A program made the position numbers and the translations under genes. This document shows, piece by piece, positions 7,762 through 52,422 of a stretch of DNA of 64,000 nt. The stretch is from an uncultured bacterium (GTDB lineage: Bacteria; Myxococcota_A; UBA9042; PHBI01): assembly GCA_938040325.1 (NCBI GenBank), contig CALHXW010000039.1, forward strand, positions 13,513-77,512, in the 5' to 3' direction. Each line of letters starts with the position of its first letter. Positions within the stretch are counted from its first letter, which is position 1. Under the pieces are notes generated by a model. The model was not told the origin of the DNA. It searched no databases and worked only from the letters and a program-made list of their open reading frames with translations.

Positions 7762-8253
7762 ATGGCGACGATCACCCTCAAAGGCAACCCCATCGAGACC
7801 AACGGCGATCTGCCGGCCGTCGGCTCAGCAGCCCCTGACTTCAAGCTCGTGAAGACCGACCTCTCGGAGGTCTCGCTCAGCGGACTGTCGGGCAAGACCG
7901 TGCTCAACATCTTCCCAAGCATTGACACGCCGGTCTGCGCGATGAGCGTCCGAGCGTTCAATGAGCGCGCCGCCGCACTCGAGGGCGTCACGGTGCTCAA
8001 CGTGTCCGCCGATCTGCCCTTCGCTCACAAGCGATTCTGCGGCGCCGAAGGCCTCGACAAGGTCGAGTCAGCATCCACGTTCCGTGGCTCGTTCCTCAGC
8101 GACTACGGCGTCAAGATCACGACCGGGCCGCTCGCCGGCGTTGGCGCGCGTGCCGTTGTCATCGTCGCCGACGGCAAGGTCGTCTACAGCGAGCTCGTGC
8201 CTGAGATCGCACAAGAGCCCAACTACGATGCGGCGCTCGCCGTCATCTCGTAG
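7762..8253 (+). CDS. tpx: Thiol peroxidase (atypical 2-Cys peroxiredoxin, Tpx)
   Basis: 163 aa. [10 protein letters not shown]...AAPDFKLV...SIDTPVCA...RFC and C-terminal ALAVIS are a full-length Tpx match. Confidence 0.93.
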
Positions 8254-9969: not shown

Positions 9970-12858
9970 ATGAGAGGACCCAAGCTGATGTTGAGCAACA
10001 CGATTGAGCGCGGCGTCATGCGTTGTGTGAGAGGGCTTCTGTTGGTGGGCTTGGTGGCGTGGGTCTCCTCGACCGCGTCGGCTGGCGACCTGCGGCACGC
10101 AGCACTCATCGACGAGGTGGTCGATGGCGCTGCAAGCACGTCGATCGGGACCGAAGTCGCCATCATCAACGCGCTCAAGAAACGAGGCATCACGTTCGTC
10201 GACGCAAGCCAAAGTCAGAAGGTTCGCTCGGTCACCGATGCTGGCACGCTGATCGCTGGCACCGTGCCCGACGTGGTCACGGCCCTCGATGCCGATGTCC
10301 TGATCGCTGCGGTCTGCCGCATGGAACAGATCAAAAACGAGCTGATCGCTGGAACGGCCGTGCGGTACAGCGCTGCGGTCGACGCAAAGCTCATTCGCGT
10401 CGACACCGGCCAGGTCGTCGGTGCCTACCAAGTGCTCGGCAAAGGTCTCGGCTTTTCGAAGGCGCAGGCACAGCAGAAAGCGGCACAGGACGCCGGCAAG
10501 AAGCTGGCCGAGGAGATTGCCGCTGCGTCGAGCGGCGCCGCGGTGGACGCTTCAAGCCTCGAGCTCACGGTCCAAGGGATTCCCAACGTCAGTGCTGGTG
10601 AGGCCGTTGTCCGCGGGCTTGAGCGGGTCAAGGGGATCAAAGGTGTGCGCGCACTCCAGATGGGGCGCGGTGCCGCCAAGCTTCGGCTCACGGTGTCGGC
10701 AGGCGCGCGGGAAACCGCCGTGGCGATCGACGGTGCGAGCGGCCTCGGCTTGAGCGTCTTCGGATACTCGCGCTCGGCCATCAAGGCCGAGTACCGCGCC
10801 GAGACTGCGACGCGCTTCCCCATCGTCATCACGCGATTCTCGGGCGGCCGAAAAGCCGGCTGGCGCGGTGACGCCATGGGCAAGATTGTGGGTGCGTCAC
10901 TGAGCAACACGGGCTTCGTAGATATCGTCAACAGCGACAAGCCCGCCCGGCTTGGCCGCAAGAAATCTCGGCTCAAGAAGGTGCTCAAAGGGCTGAAGAC
11001 CGACGCAACCAACGCGCTTGTGCTTGAGGGGGCTCTCCACCGCGGCGGCGGCAAGGAAAGCGTCGTGATCTCGCTGTCGTCTGCGGCCACCGGCGCCGTC
11101 ATCGCGACCGCTCAGCGGCCGTGTACAGGCGAGCTGGCGAGCTGCGTTGCGGCTGCCGGCGATGAGCTGAGCGATGGCCTGATGGGCAACTTGCTCAAGA
11201 AGCGACACCTCTTCAAGGACGCGCTTCCTGCCCGGGCGCAAGTCGCTTCCAAAGCCAGCGGCAGCGACGCGAAGCCGCTGCGCGTGCTCTCGCTTGACGT
11301 CGACAACGTTTACCCAGCCCGCTTGAACGCCTACCGCGACCAGCCGCTTGGAATGATCAACGTGGTCAACACCTCGTCGGAGCCCCTCCAGGACGTGGTC
11401 GTGGAGGCGAAGCTCGCTGGCTTTGCTGCACCGGTCGAGAGCAAATCAACGCAGATCGCGGCCAAGGGCAAAGCGACGCTTCCCATCAAGGTGGTGCTCG
11501 ACCCTGCAACACTCCGCGACCATGACGAGAACCAGACCGCCATCCTGACGCTGGTCATTCGGTACCGGGTCGGCGAGTTCCAAGTGGAGCAGCGTCGCAC
11601 CCGCGCCGTCATGGTCTTTGACCGCAACACCGTCAACTGGAGCACCCCAGGCTCCGTTGCATCGTTTGTGACGTCGCGCTCGTCGAGCGTTGCGCGACTC
11701 TCGCGCGATATCCAAGGCGCACTGCCCCCGTCTGCGGCCAGCGACCCTGTGGCGCTCGGCGCGGCCGTCTTCGCCGGGATGCAGGAGCTGGGGCTGCGCT
11801 ACCAGCGCGATCCGGTCAACCCCTACGGTGCAGAGGTGCTCGACACGGTCCAGTTCCCCGAGCAAACCCTGACCAACAACACGGGAGACTGCGACGACCT
11901 GGCCGTCTTGTACGCCTCGCTCGCAGAGTCGCTTGGGGTTCCCGCCGCGCTGGTCCTCACACCGGAGCACGTCTTCGTCGCGACCTACACCGGCGTTCCC
12001 AGCCAGTCCGGTGACCGGCTGCTCAACCACCGGGGCATGGCCTGGCTGCCGCTGGAGACCACCTTGTTGAACAAGTCTGTTGACGCCGCATGGGACCGTG
12101 CCGCTGAGCAGGTTGCAGCCCATGGCGACGCGCTGCGGGTCATCGAGGTTCGCAGCGCTTGGTCGGAACATCCACCCGCGGCGCTGGCGGCCGCTGGTGC
12201 CAATGGCTTCCGCTACGATGCCAAGGCGCTGCGCGGGTCGGTCTCCGCTGCGGTGAAGTCGATCGGCGCAAAGCGACGGGGGCGTCTATCCGATGACGTT
12301 GCGCGCATTGATGCGCTCCTCAAAGACCAAGGCGACAAGCCGCAGCTGCGACTCCAGAAAGGCTACCTCTTAGCGCGTGCCGGCGACTTCGCTGCGGCCC
12401 AAGCGGAGTTTGATCGCCTGACCAACGCCCGCGCCTGGTCGGCGTTCGCCGTCAACAACAACGGCAACGTTCACCTCCTCGACGGTCGGCCAGCAGTTGC
12501 GCGTAAGCAATACTTGGCTGCGCTCAAGCTCCGACAAGGCGACGCTCGGATCCATGCCAATGCCGCGATCGCGTCGCACTTGCTTGGTGATGCCTCAGCA
12601 TTCGATGACCACCTCTTTGAGTGCATCGCCAACGGCGGCGACGCGCTCGTCGCCCAGATCAGCCGCAGCGGCCTCGGTGGCGCGGGCGCACGCGGTTCCG
12701 CGGCTGGCAGGTCCTCGCTTGGACAAGCGATTCGTGACGCGTACAAGCGTCGGAATGTATCGTTACCCAACGGGTTAGCAGTGGGAGGGCGGCGCGCGAC
12801 GTCCGCCGAGTCCACCGTGACGCTGGCTGCCGAGCAGCTCCAATGGTTGTGGGAATGA
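9970..12858 (+). CDS. Large secreted protein: N-terminal periplasmic domain, central transglutaminase-like cysteine-protease core, C-terminal TPR repeats
   Basis: Signal peptide (LLLVGLVAWVSSTASA). Transglutaminase-like core reads NNTGDCDDLAVLYASLAESLGVPAALVLTPEHVFVA (Cys...His). TPR-like helical repeats at the C-terminus (LLARAGDFAAAQAEFDRL...). High GC3. SD plus ATG start. Confidence 0.75.
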   Translation: MRGPKLMLSNTIERGVMRCVRGLLLVGLVAWVSSTASAGDLRHAALIDEVVDGAASTSIGTEVAIINALKKRGITFVDASQSQKVRSVTDAGTLIAGTVPDVVTALDADVLIAAVCRMEQIKNELIAGTAVRYSAAVDAKLIRVDTGQVVGAYQVLGKGLGFSKAQAQQKAAQDAGKKLAEEIAAASSGAAVDASSLELTVQGIPNVSAGEAVVRGLERVKGIKGVRALQMGRGAAKLRLTVSAGARETAVAIDGASGLGLSVFGYSRSAIKAEYRAETATRFPIVITRFSGGRKAGWRGDAMGKIVGASLSNTGFVDIVNSDKPARLGRKKSRLKKVLKGLKTDATNALVLEGALHRGGGKESVVISLSSAATGAVIATAQRPCTGELASCVAAAGDELSDGLMGNLLKKRHLFKDALPARAQVASKASGSDAKPLRVLSLDVDNVYPARLNAYRDQPLGMINVVNTSSEPLQDVVVEAKLAGFAAPVESKSTQIAAKGKATLPIKVVLDPATLRDHDENQTAILTLVIRYRVGEFQVEQRRTRAVMVFDRNTVNWSTPGSVASFVTSRSSSVARLSRDIQGALPPSAASDPVALGAAVFAGMQELGLRYQRDPVNPYGAEVLDTVQFPEQTLTNNTGDCDDLAVLYASLAESLGVPAALVLTPEHVFVATYTGVPSQSGDRLLNHRGMAWLPLETTLLNKSVDAAWDRAAEQVAAHGDALRVIEVRSAWSEHPPAALAAAGANGFRYDAKALRGSVSAAVKSIGAKRRGRLSDDVARIDALLKDQGDKPQLRLQKGYLLARAGDFAAAQAEFDRLTNARAWSAFAVNNNGNVHLLDGRPAVARKQYLAALKLRQGDARIHANAAIASHLLGDASAFDDHLFECIANGGDALVAQISRSGLGGAGARGSAAGRSSLGQAIRDAYKRRNVSLPNGLAVGGRRATSAESTVTLAAEQLQWLWE

Positions 12859-13490
12859 AAAGATCAATGCAAAGCCAGACCTCGGCGCGATGGCCCTCGG
12901 GCCTCCGCGCAGTCCTTCTCATGACGGCGCTCGCGCTTGTGACGCCGACTGGCTTTGCTGCGGAACCAGATGAGGCTCCCGGTGGCCTCAAGGTCGGCGA
13001 CTTTGCGCCTCAGTTTCTGATGAAGACGCTCAACCCCAAAGAGAGTGGGGTGGAGATGTTTTCCACCAAGCGCGTCGTGGGCAGTCAGGCCGACCAGCCA
13101 AAGGCGGGTCTGGTCGTGACGTTCGCTGCGTCGTGGTGCAAGCCATGCAAGCGCGAGCTCCCAGAGATCAAAAAGCTCGCCGATCGCTACGCCGACAAAG
13201 GAATTGCCACGGTTGTCGTCGTTGTCGACCGTGAGCCGGCAGCCACCGAGACCATGCGATCCCTGCTTGTCGACGAGCTCAAGTTCAGCCATCCGGTTCT
13301 CACCGATCGGTTCGGGGTTGTCGGACGTCGATACTTCGCCGAAGAGCTGCCGATGACGGTCGTCGTCGATGCCGATGCAAAGATTGTCTGGCTTCGCTCC
13401 GGATACGATGAAAAGACGGCTCGTGACCTTGAGCGCGAGCTGAAAGAGCTCGCCAAGAAGGCCGCAAACAGGCCATCCAAGGGCAAGTAG
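12855..13490 (+). CDS. TlpA-like thiol:disulfide oxidoreductase (thioredoxin fold, WCKPC), secreted
   Basis: Signal peptide, then FAASWCKPCKRELPEI. The ATG at 12855 overlaps the upstream stop (ATGA), implying translational coupling with the 9970 gene. Confidence 0.85.
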   Translation: MKRSMQSQTSARWPSGLRAVLLMTALALVTPTGFAAEPDEAPGGLKVGDFAPQFLMKTLNPKESGVEMFSTKRVVGSQADQPKAGLVVTFAASWCKPCKRELPEIKKLADRYADKGIATVVVVVDREPAATETMRSLLVDELKFSHPVLTDRFGVVGRRYFAEELPMTVVVDADAKIVWLRSGYDEKTARDLERELKELAKKAANRPSKGK

Positions 13491-13564: not shown

Positions 13565-15589
13565 CTAGCGGCGGAACGAGTACGTTAGCGTGCCTCGAGA
13601 GCCCGACTTCAGCGCTGGCAGTCCAGCGCGTGACAGCAGCTGCTTGGCGCACGCGTCAAAGGCTGCGTCTTTGGGGCGTGACCCAATGCGAGTGACCGCG
13701 CCGTCCGACTTGACGAGCGCATGCGCCTGGAGGTCCTTTCCGGCCTTGCCCAAGCTGCTCTTGCGGTAGCAGCTCTTAAGCCTGACGCCGAAGCTCTTGG
13801 CAGCTTGCTTTCCGCGGCTGCTGAAGTCAGCGCTCGCCCGGACCGACACCCGGCTCGACGACGTCTTTCGCTTCACCGTCTTTGGAGCGGTGGTGGGGGG
13901 CCTGGTCGCTGCAGCCGCGCTTGGGGACGCACCGACAACCACCGGCGCCCTGATGGTGCTTGGGGCGCCGACCGGCGCCTTGACGGTACTTGGGGCCACG
14001 TCCGGCGCGGTGCTTGCGGTGACAACCGGCGACTCGATGACGCGCGCGCTCGTGGCGGGAGGTTCATCGGTCCCTGTCGCGCTGGTGCGCGCGCTCGGGG
14101 CTTCAGGGGCGGCGAGCTTGGCGGTGTCTGACGTCTTGCCGGTGGCCACCCGGATATCGCTGGAAGTTGCGGTGCCTGCCTTTATCGGTGGGCTCTTCGC
14201 GTCTTCGACGCCAAGCGGCCCCGCGTCTGGTTGGAGCGTGCTGGCTTCCCCCTGGGGTTGGGGGGTCGTGGCTGCCATATCCGGCGTTGAAGACCCGTCG
14301 TCGCCGGTCAAGGTCTCCACGAGCAGGTAGCTACCGAGGAGCACGGAGGCCGCAACAAAGAGCCACCGAAGCATGCTCGACCGCGACCGCTGTGGTGGCG
14401 TGCTGCCGAGCGTCTTGGCCGTCTCAGTCACGGGTGCCGCGCGGCCAATGCTGGGAGCCGCGACCTGATGCGTGGTGTGGCTCTGCGGCGCCGTCGAGGG
14501 CACGGCCGCTGGGTCCAAGGTGTCTTCTCCGCCAGGCCGCGACGCTGGTCGACCGGGCTGTGTCGCAGGCGAACCAGGGACCGTCACGTCGCCCGCCGTG
14601 TCGATACCAGCTGGGCTGCGGCGGTAGGACGCTGGATCGTTGTCGGTGAGCGTCAGCGCTTCGAGTGCAAGGTAGAGCTCATCGGTCGAGGCATAGCGGG
14701 CGTCTGGCGCCTTCGCCAAGCACCGGGTGATGACGGCGCCGAGCGCACGCGAGCTAGGCGTATCGGCGATGACCTCGGAGAGCACTGGCGGTTTGGCCGA
14801 CAGGTGCTTGAACATCAGCGCGACCTTCGTCTCAGCATCGAAGGGCAGGCGGTCAGCGGCAATATCGAAGAGCGTGCAGCCGAGCGAGTAGATGTCGGCC
14901 GCCGGACCTACGGCTTTGCCGTCGATCTGCTCGGGGCTCATGTAGGCAATGCTTCCCACTGCGGCGTTGGTTGCCGTCAGCCGGGTTGAGCCGTCGTCGA
15001 CAAGCTTGACGATGCCGAAGTCGAGGACCTTGGTGTGTAGAGCGCCCGTGGTCTCACGCTCCAACATCAGGTTGGAGGGCTTCAGGTCTCGGTGAACCAG
15101 CCCTGCGCGGTGAGCCTCGCTCAGAGACTTGCAGACGTGCATACCCACGGTGCGCACGGTGGTCAGCGGCAGCGGTCCCTTTGTCGAGACCATCTCGTCG
15201 AGCGCGGTGCCGTCGAGGAGCTCCATCACAAGGTAGAGAGCGCCATCACTGAGCTCACCGAAGTCAAAGACCGTGACCGTGTGCGGGCTCTTAAGAGCCG
15301 CAGTCGCGCGGGCTTCACGAATGAATCGCTTGCGGAGCATGGCGTCGCGTGCGGCGCCGGGCATCAACGTCTTAAGCGCGACGTTGCGGCCCATGGCCAG
15401 CTGGTACGCACGGTAGACAACGCCCATCCCGCCGTGGCCGATGACGGTGGTGAGCAGGTACCGGTCGCTGACGATGGTGCCGATCCTCGGGTCGCCCACG
15501 CCGAGCACCAGCAGCTCGGACTCGTCTTCGGTGCAGACGAACTCGCTGCCTTCGTAGCGACGCAGACACTGAGGGCAGACGCTCGTCAT
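13565..15589 (-). CDS. Transmembrane Ser/Thr protein kinase: N-terminal zinc-ribbon-like CxxC..C, Pro/Thr/Ala-rich linker, TM, extracytoplasmic C-terminal domain
   Basis: GHGGMGVVY, VALK, HRDLKPSNLML, DFGIVK, SPEQ. Hydrophobic TM segment WLFVAASVLLGSYLLV. C-terminal ~80 aa have two conserved Cys and resemble the C-terminus of the 18441 lipoprotein. Confidence 0.9.
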   Translation of the reverse strand: MTSVCPQCLRRYEGSEFVCTEDESELLVLGVGDPRIGTIVSDRYLLTTVIGHGGMGVVYRAYQLAMGRNVALKTLMPGAARDAMLRKRFIREARATAALKSPHTVTVFDFGELSDGALYLVMELLDGTALDEMVSTKGPLPLTTVRTVGMHVCKSLSEAHRAGLVHRDLKPSNLMLERETTGALHTKVLDFGIVKLVDDGSTRLTATNAAVGSIAYMSPEQIDGKAVGPAADIYSLGCTLFDIAADRLPFDAETKVALMFKHLSAKPPVLSEVIADTPSSRALGAVITRCLAKAPDARYASTDELYLALEALTLTDNDPASYRRSPAGIDTAGDVTVPGSPATQPGRPASRPGGEDTLDPAAVPSTAPQSHTTHQVAAPSIGRAAPVTETAKTLGSTPPQRSRSSMLRWLFVAASVLLGSYLLVETLTGDDGSSTPDMAATTPQPQGEASTLQPDAGPLGVEDAKSPPIKAGTATSSDIRVATGKTSDTAKLAAPEAPSARTSATGTDEPPATSARVIESPVVTASTAPDVAPSTVKAPVGAPSTIRAPVVVGASPSAAAATRPPTTAPKTVKRKTSSSRVSVRASADFSSRGKQAAKSFGVRLKSCYRKSSLGKAGKDLQAHALVKSDGAVTRIGSRPKDAAFDACAKQLLSRAGLPALKSGSRGTLTYSFRR

Positions 15590-15604
15590 CGGGGAACTCC
15601 CGAG

Positions 15605-27022: not shown

Positions 27023-27952
27023 TTAGCCCCCGACGTTGAACTTCGCCAGTCCAAGTCGCTCGCCATTGGAGCCGACGACCTCGCACGACCATGGCCCGGT
27101 CCACTTCGTCTTGGTTCGCTGCCGCGACCATGTGCGCCACTTCGGGCTCTTGCCGACCTTCAGCTCGACCTTGCTAACAAGACGTGTGCCGCGTCGCCAG
27201 ATGTGGGTGACGGTGGCTTCCTGCATCGTGTTCTTGAAGATCGTGAAGCAGTAAAAGAGCTCCGGGATGACCGGGAACGACGCTGCAGCACCCTGGATCT
27301 GACGCGACTCGACGCCTGTGCCGATCACGAGATCGACGAGCTCGGTCTGGCCGGTCGTGTTCCACATGGTGACGCCCTCGCGTCCAACGCGGGGGCTCGT
27401 TGAGACAGCGCCGCTCGAGGCCACGCTGGGTTGGATCGGGGTCACCGGCACCGGGACCGGCTGAACCACCCGGATCGAGGCCGGGTCGTCGGCGGCGGCG
27501 GCAAGGTCGGCTTGGGTGAGGTTCGTCGCGCTGACCGGTCGCCCCTGAGGCTGAGCGTTGGGCTGCACACGATTGACGCTCGGCGGCACAGTGCCCGGCG
27601 AGACCACTGGAGGCACGTTGCCGCGGAGCTGAGGGCTGCCTCCAACAGGCTGAGGCGCGCGCGCGGTGTTGCCGGCAGCAGGGGCGTTGGCGATGTCGCG
27701 ATTGTTGACGCGTGCCTCGGCGATCGCGGCGCGCTCGCGCGCGGTGAGCGACGGCCCCTCGGCGGCGGTGATCGTCCGTCGCGGGCGCATGTCGCTGCGG
27801 AGCTCTTCGAGCAGCTCGGCACGGAGCTCAGCTTTGAGCTGGCTGCGGAGCTCCGGCGAGATCGACTCGTCCTTGCTGTCGCAGGCAAACAAGCTTGTGC
27901 TGATGGCGATCAGGCACAGCAGGGAAAGGCGGTGATGAGGCAGGCAAACCAT
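27023..27952 (-). CDS. Lipoprotein (lipobox LFAC) with a Pro/Gln-rich linker and a conserved C-terminal domain (tentatively DUF2914-like)
   Basis: Signal peptide plus lipobox. C-terminal ~120 aa: MWNTTGQTELVDLVIG...YCFTIFKN...THIWRRG...WSCEVV. 3 bp upstream of the GH57 gene. The domain name is from memory and should be confirmed. Confidence 0.65.
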   Translation of the reverse strand: MVCLPHHRLSLLCLIAISTSLFACDSKDESISPELRSQLKAELRAELLEELRSDMRPRRTITAAEGPSLTARERAAIAEARVNNRDIANAPAAGNTARAPQPVGGSPQLRGNVPPVVSPGTVPPSVNRVQPNAQPQGRPVSATNLTQADLAAAADDPASIRVVQPVPVPVTPIQPSVASSGAVSTSPRVGREGVTMWNTTGQTELVDLVIGTGVESRQIQGAAASFPVIPELFYCFTIFKNTMQEATVTHIWRRGTRLVSKVELKVGKSPKWRTWSRQRTKTKWTGPWSCEVVGSNGERLGLAKFNVGG

Positions 27953-28283
27953 GGGTGAGATCTACGCCGATTGTTCACGCGCGTCGAGCAGCAACTCGGC
28001 GTTTCCCGTCGAGGTTTGGGCCGCGTTCGAGGTGGCGTCCGGGCCGTTGATGGACCGGCGGGTGGGGAGGCGACGGCCAGCCTCGCGACTCGCGCTTCGG
28101 ACAGGCATCGTCGTCCGCTGCGCAAGCCCGCCTGCCCAAAGCGCGAGCTCGCCGCGGGCAGGGCCATGTCGCCGTGTGCCGCCGGTGCCTGCGAGTTTGC
28201 TCACTCAGGCGGCCGAACGAGGGCGGTTTTTTCGACAGACACTTAGAGCAGACCTAGGGTCGGGCGGCACTGGAGGAAGTCCC

Positions 28284-31200
28284 ATGGTTGAGCCTGTGAT
28301 CGATAGCCTAGACCCCGGCTTGAAGATGGTCTGTCCTGCTTGCAACGTGACGTTTGAGGCGTCTGTGCAGGTCTGCGTGACCTGCGGTGCAGGCCTCCTT
28401 GAGGTGCCGGACTCCCCCTTGCTCTCAGGTCAGCTGCTCGACGGGCGCTACCAGATCGGCGGCGTCGTCGGCAGTGGCGGGATGGGCACCGTCTACCGGG
28501 CCGAGCAGGTCGGCATGGAGCGCGCGGTCGCGATCAAGGTCATGCACGCTCACTACGCGCACGACCCGCGTGCAGTGAAGCGCTTCTTCCGCGAGGCACA
28601 GGCCGCGAGTCGGCTGATCCACCCCAATATCGTCACGGTCTACGACTTCGGGCGCTCCGAAGACGGGCATCTCTACATGGTGATGGAGCTCCTTGAGGGA
28701 TGGACCCTCGGCGATCTGATTCACTACCGCGCCCCCCTTGAGCCCTCGCTGGCGATCGCCATCGCGTCCCAGGTTTGCGACGCGCTCGACGAGGCCCACA
28801 AGCGCCGCATCGTTCACCGCGACCTCAAGCCCGACAACATCCTCGTCTCGCTCGTTCGTGGCAGCGTATGGGCGAAGGTGCTCGACTTCGGGATCGCTCG
28901 TGCGATGCGAGACCGCGATGCCGGGCTGATGGTCCACCAGTCGACGGTCGAGATCGCAGGCACGCCTGCCTACATGAGCCCCGAGCAGATCCTGGGCCAA
29001 GACCTCGACCCGAGGTCGGACCTCTACTCGCTCGGCGTGATCCTCTACGAGATGCTCACCCGGCAGCGGCCCTTCGACGACGAGAACTCCGTCACGCTGT
29101 GCATGAAGCAGCTCAACGACGAGCCCGTCGCGCTCAACACCTTTCGCGAGGATGTGCGTCGGCTCGACGAGGTCGTTCATGGCCTTCTCCACAAGTCCGT
29201 CGACGGTCGGCCGTCAACCGCTGGCGACACGAAGCGGCGCCTGCTGGCCTGCCCACAGGCAGCAGCCCCCGTCGTGCTCGAGCCCATCGATCCCGGCGCT
29301 GCCCGTGGTCTTGGCGCCAAGACCACACGCGGCAACGCCGCGGCCCTCATGGCGCAGCCGACGCTCAACGTGGCCTACGAAGCAGCTCAGTCGCAGCGCT
29401 TGCACACGCCAGCACTCGGCGGCGTGGCGCTCCCAGAGCTGAGCTTTCCTGGCATGTCCGCCGCCGTCGCTCCGAAGGTCGATGTGCCGCAGGAGGTCCA
29501 GGTTGCCGCGGTCGCGCGAGTGGTCGCCGAGAGCCAGGACGTGATCAGCCATGTGGTTGTTTGCGGCTGGATCGAAGCCCGTGAGGCCGAGGGCTGGGAG
29601 GTCGACGTGGACGGCGATGCCCTCGACGTTTACGTGCCTGCCGTTGCTGGACACGACGCGTTCGGCGCGTTGCTCAACGAGCTGTCGGCGCTACAAGGCG
29701 CTGCGCTGGACGCCAACCTCGCGCTGAGGACCGGCGCGGCAAGCTGTGCAGATGGCTACGGGACGCGCGCCCTCGACCTTGCGCGGCGACTCGCCGCGTC
29801 CGCACCCCACGGTCGTGTCGTCACCACCAAGGGGGCAGGGGCCGAGCGCGGGCATCGTGAGGTGCCGAGGACCTCGGTGTTTCTCCCTGGTGGCGCCGCG
29901 CTCGCCGCCGTGTCGATCGCGCCCGCGAGCCCCAGTGGCGGGGCACTGGTCGACGATGGTGAGCTGCTCTGGGGCAGAAGCATTCCGCTGCGTCGGCTTG
30001 GGCAGATCGCCGACGAAGCGCGACGGACGGGGCTACAGCGTGCCCTGCTGGTCGGCGCGGCTGGCTTTGGCAAGAGCGCCGCCCTTCGGTCCTTCGTTCG
30101 GGGCCGCCGCCACGTCATGGTTCGGGTCGCACCCGCTGCCGAGCTCTGGCCAGGGCACACCGTCGCGCGACTGGTCGCTGCGAGCCTCGGGCTCGATAAG
30201 CTCACCGGTCGCATCTCGGATCTCGCCGGCCTGTCGGTGCCGTCGCTGCACCTCCCGACGCTGCACCTCCTGCTCTGTGACAAGCGCCCGGATGACGCGC
30301 CGTCGCTGCGAAGTCTCGCAGCACTTGTCGGCTATGCTCTCGAGCAGCGGGCACTCGGCGGCCCTCTCGTCATCGCGATCGACGATGCCGATGGGGTGGA
30401 CGAGGCCAGCCGGCTCATCCTTGAGGCCGCGCTCGCCGCGCACAGCGACCAGCCATGGCTGCTGGTCGCATCGACGCGCACCCTCAAGCCACAGCTCCTG
30501 TGCGCCGAGGGGCATCGGGTTGAGCTCAGGCCGCTCGGTATGCGCTCGGCCAACTCGCTGCTCGACGCCTACGACGTGCCACCGCGGCGTCGGCACAGCA
30601 TGATCGCGGCGGCCCAGGGCAACCCGCGAGCGCTGCAGCTGCTGGCGCGCACAACGGAAGATGCCGTGCCCAACGTCTACGGCGAGCGCATCATCAACGT
30701 GCTGCTGCCGGAGCACCTGCGGGGCGCCGAGCCCAAGGTCGCGGACAGCTCTTGGGTTGCCGCAGCGACGGGCGACGCCGCTGACGAGCCGCTGAGCGTG
30801 CAGGCGGCAAAGCTCTACCTCCAGGTTGGGCTGGACCCGGCGCTTGCCTCGTGGCTCGCTGGCCGCCTTCGGCACGAGGGGCCGATCGCGTCGTGGTTGG
30901 CCTCAGCGTGGGTCGATGCAGAGCCCGACGGGCCGCAACGCCGCGCTGAGCGCTGCGAGCGCCTAGGCATGTGGCGACTCGCCGCGACCGCCTACGAGAC
31001 GTCGCTCGCCTTGGTCTCCGACGAAGCTCGGCCCAGCCTCCAGCTGCGTGCAGCCACCATGCGGGCCTGTGCCGGCGATGTTGCCCGCGCCGTGACGTCG
31101 TTCGATGCGTCTGTGCGCTGCGGCATGAGCCGACACCGCGCAACAGAGCTCTTGGCGTTCGCGACGCTCATGCTCGAGAACGGCGAGATTCAGCGGGCCC

Positions 31201-32057
31201 AGGCGATCCTCGACGGGGTTCGGAGTGTCCCTCAGTACGCATCGGCGCCGAAGGCTTGCGCGGGCTCTGCGATCCTCGCGGCACGCGCCGCCGTGCGCAG
31301 GAGCGACGGCGTGTCGGCCATGAGCGAGCTCGCGCGAGCGCGGGCGTCGCTGGCTCAGCTGCGTCGGACAGATGCCCGTGGCGCGCGAGCACTCGAGGGC
31401 TTGGCACAAGAGGCCCGCGCAGAGGTGGCGCTTCTTGAGGGCGACCTCGATAGCGCCCAGATGAACCTTCAGCAGTCCCACGCCAGCTTCCGCGATCTCG
31501 GCATGATCCGTGACGCCGTGCGATGTCTCATCCAGCTCGGTCGGCGGGAGTTGGACGCCAAGCACCCGCGACGCGCGCTTGCGACGTTCAAGGCTGCGCA
31601 CGATATCGCGATCGCGCATGGCTACGGACTGGCGGCGATCGACGCCGAGACAGGGAGGGGCGATGCGAGCGTCGCGCTCTCTGAGCTCGAAGACGGCGCG
31701 CGTCTGCTGCGCTCGGCGCTCAAGGCGTCGGTGGCGTCCGGCTACAAAGAGGGCGTCGCGCGCGCCAGCCTCGGGCTTGGGCGCACGACGCTGGCACGCG
31801 GCATGTGGGCCGATGCGGTCCGGCATGCTGAGCGGGCTGTCGCCGAGAGCGACGATGCGGCGCTGACGTGCGACGCGTGGCTTCTTCAAGCTGATGCTCT
31901 GGTCACCGGGTCCCAAGGTCGGCGTGCCCAGCGCTGCATCGAGCAGGCTCACAGCCAGCTCGGTTCGATCTGGGACGGCACCCTGGCGGCAACCCTTCGA
32001 TCGCGCGCTCTCGGCCACCAGCCCGAGACGACGCCAGCGCACCTGGCAGGACAGTGA
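28284..32057 (+). CDS. STAND-type Ser/Thr protein kinase: N-terminal zinc ribbon (CPAC..CVTC), kinase domain, P-loop NTPase (GAAGFGKSA) and C-terminal TPR repeats
   Basis: Kinase motifs GSGGMGTVYRA, AIK, HRDLKPDNILV, DFGIARA, SPEQ. P-loop LLVGAAGFGKSAAL. Long TPR-like C-terminus. GGAGGAAG Shine-Dalgarno before the ATG at 28284. The track ORF start at 27951 is rejected. Confidence 0.88.
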   Translation: MVEPVIDSLDPGLKMVCPACNVTFEASVQVCVTCGAGLLEVPDSPLLSGQLLDGRYQIGGVVGSGGMGTVYRAEQVGMERAVAIKVMHAHYAHDPRAVKRFFREAQAASRLIHPNIVTVYDFGRSEDGHLYMVMELLEGWTLGDLIHYRAPLEPSLAIAIASQVCDALDEAHKRRIVHRDLKPDNILVSLVRGSVWAKVLDFGIARAMRDRDAGLMVHQSTVEIAGTPAYMSPEQILGQDLDPRSDLYSLGVILYEMLTRQRPFDDENSVTLCMKQLNDEPVALNTFREDVRRLDEVVHGLLHKSVDGRPSTAGDTKRRLLACPQAAAPVVLEPIDPGAARGLGAKTTRGNAAALMAQPTLNVAYEAAQSQRLHTPALGGVALPELSFPGMSAAVAPKVDVPQEVQVAAVARVVAESQDVISHVVVCGWIEAREAEGWEVDVDGDALDVYVPAVAGHDAFGALLNELSALQGAALDANLALRTGAASCADGYGTRALDLARRLAASAPHGRVVTTKGAGAERGHREVPRTSVFLPGGAALAAVSIAPASPSGGALVDDGELLWGRSIPLRRLGQIADEARRTGLQRALLVGAAGFGKSAALRSFVRGRRHVMVRVAPAAELWPGHTVARLVAASLGLDKLTGRISDLAGLSVPSLHLPTLHLLLCDKRPDDAPSLRSLAALVGYALEQRALGGPLVIAIDDADGVDEASRLILEAALAAHSDQPWLLVASTRTLKPQLLCAEGHRVELRPLGMRSANSLLDAYDVPPRRRHSMIAAAQGNPRALQLLARTTEDAVPNVYGERIINVLLPEHLRGAEPKVADSSWVAAATGDAADEPLSVQAAKLYLQVGLDPALASWLAGRLRHEGPIASWLASAWVDAEPDGPQRRAERCERLGMWRLAATAYETSLALVSDEARPSLQLRAATMRACAGDVARAVTSFDASVRCGMSRHRATELLAFATLMLENGEIQRAQAILDGVRSVPQYASAPKACAGSAILAARAAVRRSDGVSAMSELARARASLAQLRRTDARGARALEGLAQEARAEVALLEGDLDSAQMNLQQSHASFRDLGMIRDAVRCLIQLGRRELDAKHPRRALATFKAAHDIAIAHGYGLAAIDAETGRGDASVALSELEDGARLLRSALKASVASGYKEGVARASLGLGRTTLARGMWADAVRHAERAVAESDDAALTCDAWLLQADALVTGSQGRRAQRCIEQAHSQLGSIWDGTLAATLRSRALGHQPETTPAHLAGQ

Positions 32058-32065
32058 GGCGAGCG

Positions 32066-32638
32066 ATGCAGGCTCAGCGCCCAACCACTCGACCGCGTGG
32101 CCAGCTCAAGACGGTCGCAACCCTGCTGATGGCGACGGCGTTAGCGGCATGCCTCACGACCCGAGGCGTCGATCGACCGGTGGGTGGCGACGCGCCGGCG
32201 TTCGCTTTGACCGCTCACACCGGCGAGATCGTGCGCTTAGAGGACTACGCCGGCAAGGCGTCGGTCGTGGTCGTCTTCTACCGAGGACATTGGTGACCGT
32301 TCTGCCGCACTCAGCTCGGTGAGCTGAGCCGATTCTTCCCTCAGATCCAAGAGCGCAACGGCACCGTCGTCGCGATCAGCGTCGACGAGACGGCCGCGTC
32401 TCGGGACCTAGCCGAGCGCATGGGCCTTCCGTTTTTGCTGCTGTCGGATCCTGGCGCCAAGACCGCCGAAGCCTGGGGCGTTGCCATGGAAGGGGGCGAC
32501 GATCCCTTGGCGGTGCCAGCGCTCTTTGTGGTCGACTCCCAGGGCGGCATTCGGTTCCGCCACGTCGGTGAGCGGATGGATGACCGCGCCTACATGGGCG
32601 ACATCCTGAGCGCGTTGTCCGCCGCCAGCGGGCCATGA
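32066..32638 (+). CDS. Predicted selenocysteine-containing peroxiredoxin/thioredoxin-fold (AhpC-TSA/redoxin family) lipoprotein. In-frame UGA at 32294-32296 in the motif GHW-U-PFC
   Basis: Two track ORFs (32054..32296 and 32420..32638) share a frame and are separated by a single TGA with no other stop. The joined 190-aa product is a full-length redoxin (VVVVFYRGHW[U]PFCRTQLGEL...VVAISVDE...LPFLLLSDPG...ALFVVDSQGGIRFRHVG). N-terminal lipoprotein signal (LLMATALAAC). The start overlaps the kinase stop (GTGA). Confidence 0.7.
32310..32328 (+). other. bSECIS-like hairpin CTCAGCTC-ggu-GAGCTGAG beginning 13 nt 3' of the in-frame UGA
   Basis: Perfect 8-bp stem with a GGU apical loop (GG in the loop, as in bacterial SECIS elements). 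Loop G sits about 22 nt from the UGA. Confidence 0.5.
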
Positions 32639-34315: not shown

Positions 34316-35167
34316 ATGGACGTCATGAACCCCGACACGCTCACTTACGCGACCCCGACGCTGACGGTCTGGCCGTTCCGGACGCCAACGCTCCCGCCGG
34401 CCACGCACACCAACATGGTCCTCGTCGGCGCTGAGCGCATCTGGATCGTCGACCCGGCGACCCCGTGGCAAGACGAGCGCGAACGCATGGCGTCTGAGCT
34501 GACGGCCGTGCTCACGAGCGATCGAGCGCTCGCTGGCATCGTGTTGACCCACCATCATGCCGACCACGTGGGCGGAGCTGCATGGCTGGCAGAGCGCTTC
34601 GGCCTGGAGGTCTGGGCTCATCCGGCGACCCAGGGACTCGTCGGCGAAAAGCTGCAGGTTCAACACGTCCTCAACGAAGGCGATGTCCTCGAGGGCTCTA
34701 GCGCCGCCAACGACCGGTGGCATGTGCTGCACACCCCGGGCCACGCATCCGATCATGTCGTGCTCTGGGAGCCTGTCGGCAAGCGGGTCGTCGGCGGCGA
34801 CATGATGGCGTCGGTCGGCACGATCGTCATCGACCCGGCGGACGGGGACATGGCGATCTACTTGGAGCAGCTGCGTCGACTTCGAGCGCTGGCTCCGACC
34901 GAGTGGGTGCCGTCTCATGGAGCGGTCATCACAGACCCCGTGGGTCGTCTCGACCACTACATACAGCACCGGCTGGCGCGTGAGGCGAAAGTGCTGGCAG
35001 CGCTGACCGCTGATGACGAGCCGCTCCTCGCCGTCACGCGCCGGGCGTACCCAGAGCTCGATCCGCGGCTCTATCCACTGGCAGCTCGGTCTGCGCTGGC
35101 GCATCTCATCAAGCTCCGCCAAGACGGGCGGGCCCTTGGCGACACGCACTGGCGGCGCAGAGAGTGA
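34316..35167 (+). CDS. MBL-fold metallo-hydrolase
   Basis: LTHHHADHVGG metal-binding motif, plus a downstream HTPGHASDH. Start set at ATG 34316 (MDVMNPD). Confidence 0.8.
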   Translation: MDVMNPDTLTYATPTLTVWPFRTPTLPPATHTNMVLVGAERIWIVDPATPWQDERERMASELTAVLTSDRALAGIVLTHHHADHVGGAAWLAERFGLEVWAHPATQGLVGEKLQVQHVLNEGDVLEGSSAANDRWHVLHTPGHASDHVVLWEPVGKRVVGGDMMASVGTIVIDPADGDMAIYLEQLRRLRALAPTEWVPSHGAVITDPVGRLDHYIQHRLAREAKVLAALTADDEPLLAVTRRAYPELDPRLYPLAARSALAHLIKLRQDGRALGDTHWRRRE

Positions 35168-35970
35168 GTAGCGCAGAGAGCGTCGGTCGCGTTGGCGAGC
35201 GCTACGCGGGCGGCGAGCTGGACGCGCGGACCGAGCAGCTCGTGTCGGAACAACCGCTGGAGATCGTCGTCAACGGGACCGCGCTTGCGGTGTTGATGCG
35301 GACACCGGGGCGCGACCTGGATCTGGTCGCCGGGTTTCTGTGGACCGAAGGCGTGATCGAGAGCGCCCGCGACCTCGACGCGCTCGCTCACTGCGACGAT
35401 CCGCGCCGCCCCAACCGTGAGAACCTGGTCCGTGCCGCGCTTGCTGCGGGGTGTGCGGTGGAGCCCGCTCGCCGGACCTTCACGACCGGATCGAGCTGCG
35501 GCCTCTGTGGCAAAACGCAGCTGCAAGACTTGGCGCAGGTCGTCCGCACGCGGGCGAACCCAACGCGGATTCCCGAGGATGCTGTCAACATCGTGGCCGC
35601 CGAGGTCGCCGGCCGTCAGCCCGTGTTCGAGCGCACGGGCGGGTTGCATGCTGCGTGCCGGTTCCACACCGCTTCAGGTGCCGTGCTGGATGTCGCCGAA
35701 GACATCGGGCGCCACAACGCCACTGACAAGGTGCTGGGTGCGGCCCTCCGTGCTGGGGCAGACGACCTTGCGGGGCAGTCGCTATGGGTCAGTGGCCGCG
35801 TGAGCTTTGAGATCGTGCAGAAGGCCGCGGTCGCCGGTCTCGACGGGATCGTCGCCGTCGGTGCCGTGAGTGCGCTGGCAGCCGATCTTGCGGGCGAGGT
35901 TGGCCTCGACCTCATCGGGTTCGCGCGTGCCGGGCGGTTCACGCGCTACCACGGCGAGTCGAGCGGCTGA
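35164..35970 (+). CDS. fdhD: Formate dehydrogenase accessory sulfurtransferase FdhD
   Basis: LEIVVNG, SSCGLCGK catalytic cysteine motif and GRHNA are FdhD hallmarks. 4-bp overlap with the MBL gene. Confidence 0.88.
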   Translation: MSSAESVGRVGERYAGGELDARTEQLVSEQPLEIVVNGTALAVLMRTPGRDLDLVAGFLWTEGVIESARDLDALAHCDDPRRPNRENLVRAALAAGCAVEPARRTFTTGSSCGLCGKTQLQDLAQVVRTRANPTRIPEDAVNIVAAEVAGRQPVFERTGGLHAACRFHTASGAVLDVAEDIGRHNATDKVLGAALRAGADDLAGQSLWVSGRVSFEIVQKAAVAGLDGIVAVGAVSALAADLAGEVGLDLIGFARAGRFTRYHGESSG

Positions 35971-36025
35971 GCAGACGCGTGTCCACTGGTGCGCGTCACG
36001 CAAACCGCAGTTCCCGGCAACCCTG

Positions 36026-36598
36026 TTAGGGGGTATCAGCCAGGGACGCGATGAGGGCGGCGTGGTCTTGTGGGGTGTCGAAGTCTCGGCAGCGGGCACG
36101 CATGCCTTCGGGCAGCGTGTCGAGGTCGAGCCACCCGCACTCGAGTCCGTCAACAACGCGCATGAGCCTGCGCTCACCGGCTTCGTGAGCAGCGACGAGT
36201 GCGGCTTTACCGCCAGCATCGTAGCGGGCCAGCAGCGGTTGCGGACGGGCGTCTAAGCGAGCGATCAACGCGTCGTGGTGGCTGCCGCTCTGGGTCGCCA
36301 GCCTGACCAGCACCTGCTGCGGGACCAGCGGCACGTCGCACGCGACCACGAGGAGTGAGCGCGCCGGGTAGGCTAGGGCGGCGGTCGCGAGGGCTTGGAC
36401 CGGCCCGCCGTTCGGCTCAAGGTCCGCCAGCGCGCCGTGGGGGCCGCCCACGATGACCACCTCGTCGACCACCAGCCGCAGCGTCGCTTGAACTCGGCTG
36501 AGGCTCGTCTGACCGTCGATGTCGGCGCTGGCCTTGTCGGCGCCGAACCGTGTCGAACGACCGCCTGACAGGATGATGCCGATCGGTGATAGGGTCAT
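36026..36598 (-). CDS. mobA: Molybdenum cofactor guanylyltransferase MobA
   Basis: N-terminal GIILSGGRSTRFG...DK nucleotide-binding motif. 190 aa. Confidence 0.85.
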   Translation of the reverse strand: MTLSPIGIILSGGRSTRFGADKASADIDGQTSLSRVQATLRLVVDEVVIVGGPHGALADLEPNGGPVQALATAALAYPARSLLVVACDVPLVPQQVLVRLATQSGSHHDALIARLDARPQPLLARYDAGGKAALVAAHEAGERRLMRVVDGLECGWLDLDTLPEGMRARCRDFDTPQDHAALIASLADTP

Positions 36599-36613
36599 CG
36601 CTTCAGTGAGGAG

Positions 36614-38851
36614 GTGCGGTTGAAAAAGGTCAAGTGGGGCTGGCGTCCATCACTTTGGGCAAGCTGGAAGCCATTCGGGATCGGCGAGCAGCGACCGAAC
36701 AACTACCTCGAGTTCACCAAGGCGTTTCGCGCGACGAAGGGCAATCGGCGCTATGCGTGGCGGATCCTCAAGAAGGGTGTCTGCGACGGCTGCGCGCTCG
36801 GAACGACGGGGATGCGCGACTGGACGCGGGATGGCGTGCACCTGTGCAACATCCGCTTGCGCTTGCTCTCGCTCAACACGGCCAAGGCGTTCGATCCGAG
36901 CCTTCTTGCAGACGTCGAGCGCCTCCAGGACATGCGCAACGGTGAGCTCCAGGAGATGGGCCGGCTGCCGACGCCGATGATCCGGCGCCGCGGCGACAAG
37001 GGCTTCACGCCGGTGTCATGGGACGATGCGCTTAGCGTCCTTGCTGACCGGCTCCGCGGGGTCGAACCGCAGCGGCTGGCGTTCTACCTGACAAGCCGCG
37101 GTCTCCCGAACGAGACCTACTACAGTGCTCAGAAGGCCGTGCGCGGGCTTGGCTCCAACAACATCGACAACGCCGCGCGCATCTGCCACTCGCCGTCGAC
37201 GTCTGGGCTCAAGCGTGGGCTTGGCGTGGCCGCGACGACGTGCTCCTACACCGATTGGATCGGCACCGATCTGGTCGTCTTCTTCGGCTCGAACGTCGCC
37301 AACAATCAGCCAGTGGCGACGAAGTACCTATATGCGGCACGGAAAGCCGGCACCAAGGTCGCGATCGTCAACAGCTACCGAGAACCCGGGATGGAGCGCT
37401 ACTGGATCCCGTCGATCTCCGACAGCGCGCTCTTTGGGACGAAGCTTGCGACCGACTTCTTCCTCGTCAACATCGGCGGCGACATCGCGTTCATCATGGG
37501 GGCGCTCAAGCAGCTCATCGCAGACGACGCTGTGGACCAGGACTTCATTGCCAACAAGACGAACGGGTTCGAGGCGCTCAAAGCACGCGTCGAAGCGACG
37601 CCCTGGGAGACGCTTGAGAGCCTCAGCGGGGTCTCGCGCGAGGAGATGGCCGGGTTCGCTGGCCTCGTTGCTGAGGCCGAGCGCGCGGTGTTCGTGTGGA
37701 GCATGGGGATCACCCAGCACACGTTCGGCGAGGACGCGGTGAGCGCCATCATCAACCTAGCGCTGACCAAAGGCTTTGTGGGGCGTGAGGGCTGCGGCCT
37801 GATGCCCATCCGCGGACACTCGGGCGTCCAAGGAGGCGCCGAGATGGGCGCCTACGCGACCGCGCTCCCAGGCGGGCGGCCCGTGAACCCTGAGGCTGCG
37901 GCGGAGCTCGCTGAGAGCTGGGGCTTTGAGGTGCCGTCGTGGCCGGGGCTCACCGCACCACAGATGATGGATGCAGCAGACCGCGGGGACCTCGAGGCGC
38001 TCTGGTCGGTTGGCGGGAACTGGCTCGACGTCGTGCCAGAGCCAGGCTGGGCCAAGCGCGCGCTCGAGAACGTGCCGGTGCGTGTTCACCACGACATCGT
38101 GATTGGCCGGCAGATGCTGCTTGAGCCGACCGAGCTGACGGTCCTGCTTCCGGCGGTGACGCGCTACGAGATCGCCGAGGGCTGCACCGAGACATCCACC
38201 GAGCGTCGCATCATCTTCAGCCCCGAGATCAAAGGGCCGCGCATCCCAGATGCCCGCCATGAGGGCGAAGTCCTCTACGAGCTTGCGCGGCGCGTTCGCC
38301 CGGAGCTTGAGGACGCGCTGGCGTGGCCCGGGACGCCGCAGCTGCGCAAGGAGATCGAGCGCGATGTCTCGTTCTATGCGGGGATCGGCGAGCTCTCCAA
38401 GCAAGGCGACAACGTGCAGTACGGCGGGCCGCACCTCTGCGCAGACGGTGTCTTTCCGACGCCGACAGGGCGCGCAAGCTTCGCTGACGTGCCGCTGCCT
38501 GCGACAGGTGCGCCCGACGGACAGTTCGTTGTCACGACCCGACGCGGAAAGCAGTTCAACAGCATCATCCACGAAGACAAGGATGCGATCACAGGCGCGC
38601 GGCGAGACGCGGTGCTGATGTCCCAGGACGACGCGACGCGCCTTGGCCTTGCCGATGGGGACCCTGTGTCGCTGTCCAACAGCCTCGGGCGCTATGACGG
38701 TCGTGTGCGGATCGCTCGGGTTCGCCCTGGAAATCTTCAGGTCCACTGGCCCGAAGGCAACGTTCTCATCGCCCGCGATCGGCGCTCACCCAACGCTCAG
38801 ATCTTCGACTACAACGCTGTCGTCTCCGTCGAGCGGCGCGCTGCCACCTGA
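36614..38851 (+). CDS. Molybdopterin oxidoreductase, FdhF/YdeP family (formate-dehydrogenase-like alpha subunit). Cys, not Sec, at the active-site position
   Basis: Family-typical N-terminus (GVCDGCALGTTGMRDWT). Active-site region NAARICHSPSTSGL corresponds to the SVUHGPS region of FdhF but carries Cys. 745 aa. Confidence 0.85.
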   Translation: MRLKKVKWGWRPSLWASWKPFGIGEQRPNNYLEFTKAFRATKGNRRYAWRILKKGVCDGCALGTTGMRDWTRDGVHLCNIRLRLLSLNTAKAFDPSLLADVERLQDMRNGELQEMGRLPTPMIRRRGDKGFTPVSWDDALSVLADRLRGVEPQRLAFYLTSRGLPNETYYSAQKAVRGLGSNNIDNAARICHSPSTSGLKRGLGVAATTCSYTDWIGTDLVVFFGSNVANNQPVATKYLYAARKAGTKVAIVNSYREPGMERYWIPSISDSALFGTKLATDFFLVNIGGDIAFIMGALKQLIADDAVDQDFIANKTNGFEALKARVEATPWETLESLSGVSREEMAGFAGLVAEAERAVFVWSMGITQHTFGEDAVSAIINLALTKGFVGREGCGLMPIRGHSGVQGGAEMGAYATALPGGRPVNPEAAAELAESWGFEVPSWPGLTAPQMMDAADRGDLEALWSVGGNWLDVVPEPGWAKRALENVPVRVHHDIVIGRQMLLEPTELTVLLPAVTRYEIAEGCTETSTERRIIFSPEIKGPRIPDARHEGEVLYELARRVRPELEDALAWPGTPQLRKEIERDVSFYAGIGELSKQGDNVQYGGPHLCADGVFPTPTGRASFADVPLPATGAPDGQFVVTTRRGKQFNSIIHEDKDAITGARRDAVLMSQDDATRLGLADGDPVSLSNSLGRYDGRVRIARVRPGNLQVHWPEGNVLIARDRRSPNAQIFDYNAVVSVERRAAT

Positions 38852-41405: not shown

Positions 41406-41449
41406 CACGCTCGCGCTAGGTCGCACGCACACGAGGTCTTGCCCTCACG

Positions 41450-43525
<2,076 letters not shown>

Positions 43526-47164: not shown

Positions 47165-47520
47165 GTCCGTATCCTTCGTTCGTGCCCGCGTTTGAGCGAA
47201 CTGGCATAGGGGACCCGACATTCCCTTCGCCGCCGTCAGATTCCACACCGGTCGGCCGATTGTCCACTTTCGAACCTTGGACTTGTAAGGCTCACGTCGA
47301 GTCGTGAGGGTCCCCCCGGTTCAAGTGCCTGTCTAAGTGGCCGCAAATGGTCTCGGTTTTCCGCTGGCTAGCCACTTGGCGTTGAGCAAGTAGCCAGTGC
47401 ACGTGTCGCATCGATTCGTCTGGATGTGACTGTTAAGCCACTTTACATGGCCGCTGTGACTCATTAGCGTGGCGGCTATGTCCGTCCGTCCATCCGCCCG
47501 CACGCGCCGCGAGACCTGAG

Positions 47521-52422
<4,902 letters not shown>

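Follow-up and report, generated by a model that had tools for sequence, protein, structure and literature searches.

A candidate Prx-like UxxC selenoprotein gene, interrupted by an in-frame TGA with a SECIS-like hairpin just past it, in a myxobacterial-looking genome

Prokaryotic selenoproteins are classified by their conserved domain together with the motif that holds the selenocysteine (Sec, U) residue (PMC9312934). One of the groups so defined, in which the pfam00578 domain is combined with a UxxC (also UxxU) motif, is the “Prx-like thiol:disulfide oxidoreductase” family (Prx, peroxiredoxin), first predicted in Geobacter by Kryukov and Gladyshev in 2004 (PMC1794560, PMC2398784, PMC9312934, PMC13188914). 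In 2006 it comprised eight sequences, from Geobacter, Syntrophus and Desulfotalea (PMC1794560). The Global Ocean Sampling (GOS) data then brought 225 “Prx-like 1” sequences, to be set against 2,740 cysteine homologues (PMC2398784), and by 2016 the count of family genes stood at 32, in 28 organisms (PMC5029168).

This article deals with a locus that resembles these genes in a stretch of 64,000 nucleotides (contig CALHXW010000039.1; the whole stretch is hereafter called the window), where two short open reading frames (ORFs) follow each other in one frame with a TGA between them. Should such a locus be read as two small proteins, or as one? We put at roughly 0.86 the probability that positions 32066-32638 form a single gene for a 190-residue selenoprotein in which the TGA is read as Sec. 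Judged by its domain, its W-TGA-P-F-C motif and a stem-loop of the selenocysteine insertion sequence (SECIS) kind, the gene appears to be a further member of the known, computationally defined Prx-like UxxC family, the class to which the preliminary description of this DNA had referred it; the assignment follows the rule of domain plus Sec motif (PMC9312934) and not a sequence comparison with WP_010940744.1 of Geobacter sulfurreducens. As in that family, an AhpC/TSA domain carries Sec as the first residue of UxxC, the SECIS stands directly past the UGA, a redox role is presumed, and cysteine homologues far outnumber Sec forms. In contrast to that family, the window gene would encode a lipoprotein, in a GC-rich, myxobacterial-looking genome, and its hairpin is of a minority form with a GGN loop 22 nt past the UGA.

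Read on the forward strand from the GTG at 32054 or from the ATG at 32066, the frame reaches the TGA at 32294-32296 and then stays open for 113 codons, up to the TGA at 32636-32638. The preliminary description had joined the ORFs 32054-32296 and 32420-32638 across this sole interruption and had supplied a 41-residue bridging translation; frame, bridge and the open stretch beyond all hold on re-reading. The ATG is the likelier start. It is preceded by GAGG and is the start picked by gene callers on the contig L010 of a Logan assembly (product of 76 aa), and the alternative GTG would overlap the stop codon (32055-32057) of the kinase gene upstream. Gene callers split the locus into ORFs of 76 and 72 aa, the second of which begins 41 codons past the TGA, inside the conserved domain. 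Past the TGA, the G+C content at third codon positions (GC3) is 0.81, like that of the neighbouring genes. The genetic code shows no reassignment, since many ordinary genes of the window end in TGA, and a scan of the window for further genes split by an in-frame TGA returned shadow ORFs only and no second candidate.

With cysteine written for the TGA, the joined protein matches a single AhpC-TSA domain (PF00578, E=1.1e-30, 106.5 bits against a cut-off of 26), over residues 43-168 of the GTG-start protein and positions 1-123/124 of the profile, straight across the TGA; the Redoxin profile PF08534 matches it as well (E=5e-23). Because the domain spans the TGA, neither half is a complete fold, and the complete AhpC-TSA/redoxin-fold protein proposed earlier is what the profile recovers.

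Thirteen database homologues of the protein (P0001-P0013) were aligned with it. In seven of them (P0001-P0007) the motif reads FYRGHW-C-PFC, the first cysteine standing opposite the window TGA; in the BCP-type peroxiredoxins P0008 and P0009 it reads T-P-G-C, and in AhpE of Mycobacterium tuberculosis T-G-I-C. The aligned sequences thus place the TGA at the N-terminal cysteine of a thioredoxin-type CxxC, that is, at the Thr position of the Prx TxxC. It had earlier been assigned to the column of the resolving or peroxidatic cysteine: a cysteine column it is, that of CxxC, but the peroxidatic column is occupied by the second cysteine of the motif. P0011 and P0013, two “short” homologues with 108 aa each, start immediately behind the motif, and their contigs read FYRGYW-TGA-PFC and FYRGYW-TGA-PSC with a same-frame ORF upstream; each is the C-terminal half of a gene that the same TGA divides.

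How widely this TGA recurs was seen by scanning one genome per species, 185,579 species in all, with the 23-nt degenerate pattern TTYTAYCGNGGNYAYTGGTGACC, which stands for FYRG[HY]W-TGA-P; by our own rough estimate only a handful of chance matches are to be expected. At least 120 genome loci carry it. Among the matches listed, to which the counts of family genes given below all refer, the frame remains open for at least 59 codons past the TGA, and mostly for 110-150, in 118 of 120 loci, and the residues around it are fixed, with Pro always at +1 and Cys always at +3, the latter in 113 of 113 non-redundant TGA genes. The hosts belong to Acidobacteriota, Gemmatimonadota, Dehalococcoidia, Alpha-, Beta- and Gammaproteobacteria, Binatia, Methylomirabilota, Myxococcota and other groups. 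They include an isolate, Polyangium sp. y55x31 (L034), whose protein is the most similar to that of the window among the matches listed and aligns with it over almost the entire length.

The family so delimited is not uniform. L061 and L079 contain the pattern and meet a stop 2-3 codons later, the only such loci among the matches listed; they are either chance matches or decayed copies, and L079 (Tectomicrobia), whose upstream peptide is family-like, may be a true pseudogene. L026 and L082 run for 273-290 codons past the TGA, against ~115 elsewhere, which suggests a UxxC domain fused to an extra C-terminal domain. Acidobacteriota members (L001-L009, L012 and others) have ~100 extra N-terminal residues with two hydrophobic segments that resemble membrane anchors. 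In many proteobacterial members, as read from the sequence, only 47-60 codons separate the preceding in-frame stop from the Sec codon, and these proteins may be cytoplasmic, since little room is left for an N-terminal signal or anchor. Localisation therefore seems to vary within the Prx-like UxxC family.

In the window, the TGA is followed by the hairpin announced in the preliminary description, an 8-bp stem (32310-32317 paired with 32321-32328) under a GGU apical loop at 32318-32320, or +22 to +24, beginning 13 nt past the TGA. Alone, it folds at -11.2 kcal/mol. Measured against the bacterial SECIS consensus, it has the usual form: the stem-loop lies inside the reading frame shortly past the UGA, at a constrained distance, and has a G or GU in its apical loop. 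In this it is like the SECIS of E. coli fdhF and the bSECISearch consensus, with an in-frame stem-loop directly 3' of the UGA and a G/GU loop ~22 nt away.

As a control, genes with the cysteine version of the motif, in which TGY replaces TGA, were collected from metagenomes (120 loci), and non-redundant sets of 114 TGA genes and 71 TGY genes were compared. Over the 45 nt past the codon, the mean folding energy is -13.0 kcal/mol for TGA genes vs -8.7 for TGY genes (p=2e-12), and the mean z-score against shuffled sequences is -1.10 vs -0.10 (p=2e-9). The separation is sharper still when position is taken into account: among the matches listed, a hairpin of at least 5 bp occupies one of two fixed positions in 92 of 114 TGA genes and in 2 of 71 TGY genes (p=2e-28). 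It persists when the comparison is limited to genes that encode [QE]-L at +6/+7 (87/103 vs 2/28, p=2e-14). The link between hairpin and recoding, first proposed from the window alone, is thereby extended to the family, in which the hairpins are specific to the TGA forms.

The two positions correspond to two kinds of hairpin. Type A (75 of the genes listed) has a stem that starts 10-12 nt past the UGA and a loop AGUUG, AGUUA or AGUU at +17; the Leu codons TTG and TTA supply the loop in 85 of the 114 TGA genes. Type B (17 genes, the window included) has a stem that starts 14-16 nt past the UGA and a loop that is mostly GGN at +22 to +24, and its members come from the window, Polyangium, Gemmatimonadota, Methylomirabilota, Acidobacteriota and others. 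The remaining 22 TGA genes listed fit neither class. In the type B alignment, both-sided changes occur in 6 of the 8 pairs, and 89.7% of cells pair, whereas a shift of the 3' partner by 1-3 columns leaves 24-51%; the 89.7% is biased, because the set was selected for pairing, and the compensatory changes are not so easily explained in that way. Between the window and Polyangium sp., for instance, the two outer pairs C-G and U-A become G-C and C-G. Two alternative SECIS positions within one protein family would be mildly novel. It is possible, although we hold this only tentatively, that the window hairpin belongs to a distinct second SECIS class within one family, with a perfect 6-8 bp stem and a 3-nt GGN loop at +22-24 in place of the majority AGUUG/AGUUA at +17, and, as part of the same tentative proposal, that this class is common to Myxococcota, Gemmatimonadota, Methylomirabilota and some Acidobacteriota.

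Two further calculations bear on the window hairpin itself. When synonymous codons were redrawn according to the codon usage of the window, stems of 8 bp or more appeared at the hairpin position in ~0.16% of the draws; the outer pairs depend on ACT, a Thr codon with 3% usage in window genes. A covariance model, serving as an approximate equivalent of bSECISearch, was trained on the 16 other type B sequences with the window left out. Its top hit, at 42.6 bits (E=4.7e-10), is 32294-32341; no other score in 128 kb (both strands) exceeds 13.7 bits.

In part of the family, the machinery for Sec decoding lies next door. Twelve tRNA genes were detected by ARAGORN on 118 family loci, and four of them, in L020, L074, L028 and L050, are tRNA-Sec. 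In L020 and L074, SelA ORFs identified by Pfam (E=1e-160 and E=3e-157, respectively) adjoin the family gene, and SelB is recognised there by its GTP_EFTU, SelB beta-barrel and SelB winged-helix domains. In the flanks of L028, L050, L051, L055 and L085, tblastn likewise detects SelA or SelB. The family gene is thus physically clustered with selA-selB-selC in some lineages, and several proteobacterial metagenome-assembled genomes (MAGs) suggest a small Sec “island” made of the machinery and the Prx-like UxxC gene alone. Hairpins that keep a fixed position and occur specifically in TGA forms, together with the linkage of family genes to selA-selB-tRNA-Sec, speak for SelB-dependent decoding.

Several observations weigh against reading the window TGA as Sec, and they deserve to be taken together. 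The stability of the hairpin is within chance: the 66-nt fold has z=+0.2, and over the 45 nt past the TGA z=-1.3, with 10% of shuffles folding as well or better, so that folding energy alone was dropped as evidence. At 66% GC such stability is unremarkable, and the case must therefore rest on comparison with relatives; what goes beyond chance is the fixed position of the hairpin, which only that comparison makes visible. The peptide T-Q-L-G-E-L-S itself predisposes to pairing, and a stem of at least 5 bp is present in ~39% of synonymous resamplings, because the encoded Q-L-G-E-L is nearly palindromic. Across the 64-kb window, none of the Rfam families scores up to its gathering threshold, and general models are indeed known to capture bacterial SECIS elements poorly (PMC12013277). 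The best relatives are only 41-45% identical, and none above 50% was found with which to compute the ratio of nonsynonymous to synonymous change (dN/dS) across the TGA. For the family as a whole, a 2026 review gives no more than “predicted with high confidence”, Sec insertion being unproven experimentally (PMC13188914).

The geometry of the element and the state of the host genome add two more points. Elements of the E. coli fdhF type have a bulged U and an 11-nt spacer; unlike them, the window element has a perfect 8-bp stem, a 3-nt loop and no bulged U, and its spacer is 13 nt. Finally, neither selA, selB, selD nor tRNA-Sec was found within the 64-kb window by Pfam on ~45 ORFs, by tblastn with SelA and SelB from L020 and L074, or by ARAGORN, which found no tRNA gene in the window at all. 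This absence is uninformative, because the genome spans several Mb. The Sec machinery of the host genome is nonetheless the main residual doubt, the data being those of the window.

It is on this doubt that the best surviving of the alternatives feeds, although we regard it as unlikely: the locus would be a relic, in which TGC or TGT had mutated to a nonsense TGA or the Sec machinery had been lost, and only a 76-residue fragment would be made. The lack of Sec machinery within the window agrees with it, as do the Cys-form homologues that share the motif and the early stops of L061 and L079, and a recent loss of the machinery would be compatible with 64 kb of data. A relic, however, would hardly be expected to keep its frame intact over 113 codons with a GC3 of 0.81 and a full-length domain match, nor to share its TGA with at least 118 genomes. 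Its hairpin, moreover, uses a rare codon, shows compensatory changes relative to Polyangium and is recovered by the covariance model at E=4.7e-10.

A reading to which we give very little probability accepts the full-length protein but makes it selenium-free, the read-through of the UGA resting, for example, on near-cognate decoding as Trp or Cys or on Cys-tRNA(Sec). No stop codon is leakier than UGA, and sequence cannot prove the incorporation of selenium. Simple leakage, on the other hand, does not call for hairpins that are fixed in position and confined to TGA genes, nor for the linkage of the family to selA-selB-tRNA-Sec, and in this same window TGA serves to terminate many normal genes. 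Slighter again is the chance that TGA is a sequencing or assembly error for TGC or TGT. The window probably comes from a MAG, and one base separates TGA from a Cys codon; yet L010, which Logan assembled separately from run ERR9287624, carries both the TGA and the hairpin unchanged, which makes an assembly artefact less likely even if it is the only second copy, comes from that single run and may share reads with the window, nor would an error happen to fall beside a SECIS hairpin of the kind confined to TGA-form relatives. Least credible of all are two separate genes with an incidental hairpin or an attenuator between them, as the callers' 76-aa and 72-aa ORFs would have it, since the Pfam profile (1-123) crosses the junction with neither half complete, the 72-aa ORF begins in mid-domain 41 codons past the TGA, and full-length Cys homologues match the joined protein collinearly.

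If, as we favour, the locus is a single selenoprotein gene, what would its product be? Its N-terminus, read by eye from the translation, has a basic and then a hydrophobic stretch followed by a lipobox LAAC, ahead of the W-U-P-F-C motif. The lipoprotein character suggested in the preliminary description is thus predicted here too, with the lipobox ending at Cys29, and the Polyangium sp. y55x31 homologue likewise has a lipoprotein signal, with the lipobox AAGC. In that homologue (L034 5771-6391, -) a twin-arginine-like SRRLFFLG stands before the lipobox. An RR pair is missing from the window protein, and the two proteins may be exported by different routes.

The active site is less orthodox than the domain. 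Cys80 aligns with the Cys of TPGC in BCP and of TGIC in AhpE, and M. tuberculosis AhpE is the closest solved relative by sequence in the Protein Data Bank (PDB; E=8e-13). Around it, however, the Prx signature is gone: R-G-H-W-U-P-F-C in the window faces P-K-D-D-T-P-G-C in BCP, so that the Prx Pro is replaced by Arg and the Prx Thr by Sec, and the column of the catalytic Arg holds Pro (LAVPALFVVD vs IANRGTFVVD, Arg116, in AhpE). The protein therefore has neither the canonical PxxxTxxC motif nor the catalytic Arg. The AlphaFold model of the closest Cys homologue, P0001 (mean predicted local distance difference test, pLDDT, 85.5), finds its best PDB matches in Bcp4 and AhpE, with template modelling (TM) scores of 0.84-0.89. 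Judging by that model and by the alignment, the scaffold is predicted to be a Prx fold whose catalytic signature is not that of a peroxiredoxin. The earlier label “peroxiredoxin-like” accordingly stands for the fold and falls for the Pro/Thr/Arg signature; with that signature missing, “peroxiredoxin” names a fold and not a demonstrated activity. With none of the Prx Pro, Thr and Arg in place, the protein would most likely act, as deduced from the residues present, as a thiol:disulfide (here selenol:disulfide) oxidoreductase rather than as a classical peroxidase.

By analogy with the SelB/SECIS mechanism, the 8-bp hairpin with its GGU loop would form in the mRNA 13 nt past the UGA at codon 77 and would recruit SelB-GTP carrying Sec-tRNA(Sec); Sec77 would be inserted, and translation would run on for 113 further codons. 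The prolipoprotein would then be cleaved and lipidated at Cys29, leaving a mature Prx-fold domain presumably tethered to the membrane on the periplasmic side. There, the selenolate of Sec77 could attack an oxidised substrate, such as a disulfide or a sulfenic acid and possibly also a peroxide, Cys80 could resolve the adduct into an intramolecular Se-S bond, and a periplasmic thiol relay could re-reduce this bond.

Known systems resemble the putative protein in different respects. The BCP/PrxQ and AhpE peroxiredoxins (AhpE, PDB 1xvw/1xxu; Bcp4 of S. solfataricus, 3hjp) are nearest among solved sequences and, for the model of P0001, among folds; unlike them, the window protein has RGHWUPFC for PxxxTxxC, Pro for the catalytic Arg and a thioredoxin-type UxxC. 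PrxU of Eubacterium acidaminophilum (TxxU; NF040737) is also a selenoprotein on a Prx fold, but the Sec of the window protein stands three residues earlier, away from the peroxidatic Cys, and the NF040737 score is 36.6 bits vs a cut-off of 270. TlpA, ResA and DsbE (CcmG) are thioredoxin-fold proteins that are anchored to the membrane or lipoproteins, as the window protein is predicted to be; they have a W-C-x-x-C motif, to be compared with its W-U-P-F-C, and AhpC-TSA/Redoxin Pfam matches, and their mode of action is, by analogy, likely to be that of the window protein too; it differs from them in that the nucleophile would be Sec and not Cys, and in a fold that, on the P0001 model, is nearer to Prx than to ResA. 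Their family models remain below cut-off (ResA NF002854, 51.6 vs 170; DsbE TIGR00385, 34.5 vs 123; TlpA NF047696, 26 vs 230), and no NCBIfam model reaches its cut-off for the window protein, the best being that of a SelL-related redox protein, at 58 vs 120 bits. The features discussed so far are collected in Table 1.

Table 1. Positions of the features of the candidate selenoprotein gene in the window, and of the selA-selB genes that neighbour two of its relatives.
Feature	Position	Strand	Details
Complete candidate selenoprotein coding sequence	32066..32638	+	190 codons including Sec77; stop TGA 32636-32638; frame open except for TGA 32294-32296
In-frame TGA, probable Sec codon (Sec77) of the W-U-P-F-C redox motif	32294..32296	+	
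SECIS-like hairpin CTCAGCTC-GGT-GAGCTGAG	32310..32328	+	starts 13 nt past the TGA; fold, covariation, covariance model
AhpC/TSA (Prx-fold) domain spanning the TGA	32180..32557	+	PF00578, PF08534; closest solved relative M. tuberculosis AhpE
Predicted lipoprotein signal peptide MQAQRPTTRPRGQLKTVATLLMATALAA/C	32066..32152	+	lipobox L-A-A-C; Cys29 = TGC 32150-32152; read from the translation
Cys80, partner Cys of UxxC	TGC 32303..32305	+	column of the Prx peroxidatic Cys
selA-selB beside the family gene	L020 3159-6659; L074 1858-5066		Pfam

The gene lies downstream of a 1368-aa Ser/Thr kinase gene with AAA_16 and TPR domains (27951-32057, +), whose stop overlaps the possible GTG start, and it is followed on the opposite strand by a convergent gene for an Rrf2-family regulator. 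As the window and the Polyangium locus have no conserved neighbours in common, this context gives no clue to function.

Ser/Thr kinases are unusually dense in the window: 27951-32057 (+), 47437-52422 (+), 53565-58226 (-), 2604-4505 (-), 13565-15604 (-) and 41420-43525 (+). Three of them, with AAA_16 and TPR regions, reach a giant size of 1368-1662 aa, and one kinase is fused to a sigma-54 activator and HTH_8. At 6913-8253 (+), a TPMT thiopurine/selenium-type methyltransferase (E=7e-58) is directly followed by a Tpx-type thiol peroxidase that is Cys-based (SIDTPVC), a pair that might bear on the detoxification of selenium or tellurium, and a TlpA-like exported thioredoxin-fold protein, also Cys-based (WCKPC), is encoded at 12738-13490 (+), 19 kb upstream of the selenoprotein gene. 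Positions 35017-38848 encode FdhD (+), MobA (-) and an FdhF/YdeP-family molybdopterin oxidoreductase (TIGR01701, 633 bits); considered as a second selenoprotein, the latter was rejected, its ORF being without an in-frame TGA.

The first consequence of these results concerns annotation, as standard ORF callers break the gene up into pieces of 76 and 72 aa that mean nothing by themselves, and the public protein databases hold the same mis-split in P0011 and P0013. The contrast between TGA and TGY genes provides a clean, family-specific SECIS signature at two positions, with which bacterial selenoproteins could be predicted better. The window selenoprotein leaves the field's concepts as they are; mildly novel are its lipoprotein form in a myxobacterial-looking genome and the breadth of the family across aerobic soil phyla. 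With at least 118 species-level genomes, the family is far wider than the eight sequences of 2006, and this breadth adds to the view that Sec use is common in aerobic soil and water bacteria. Polyangia-type myxobacteria are, to our knowledge, not noted for selenoprotein use, and a literature search on selenoproteins in myxobacteria gave nothing relevant. If the tentative second SECIS class is real, SelB of these largely aerobic soil lineages would accept a different geometry, and a Sec-dependent, lipid-anchored periplasmic redox protein would be in use in Polyangia-type myxobacteria.

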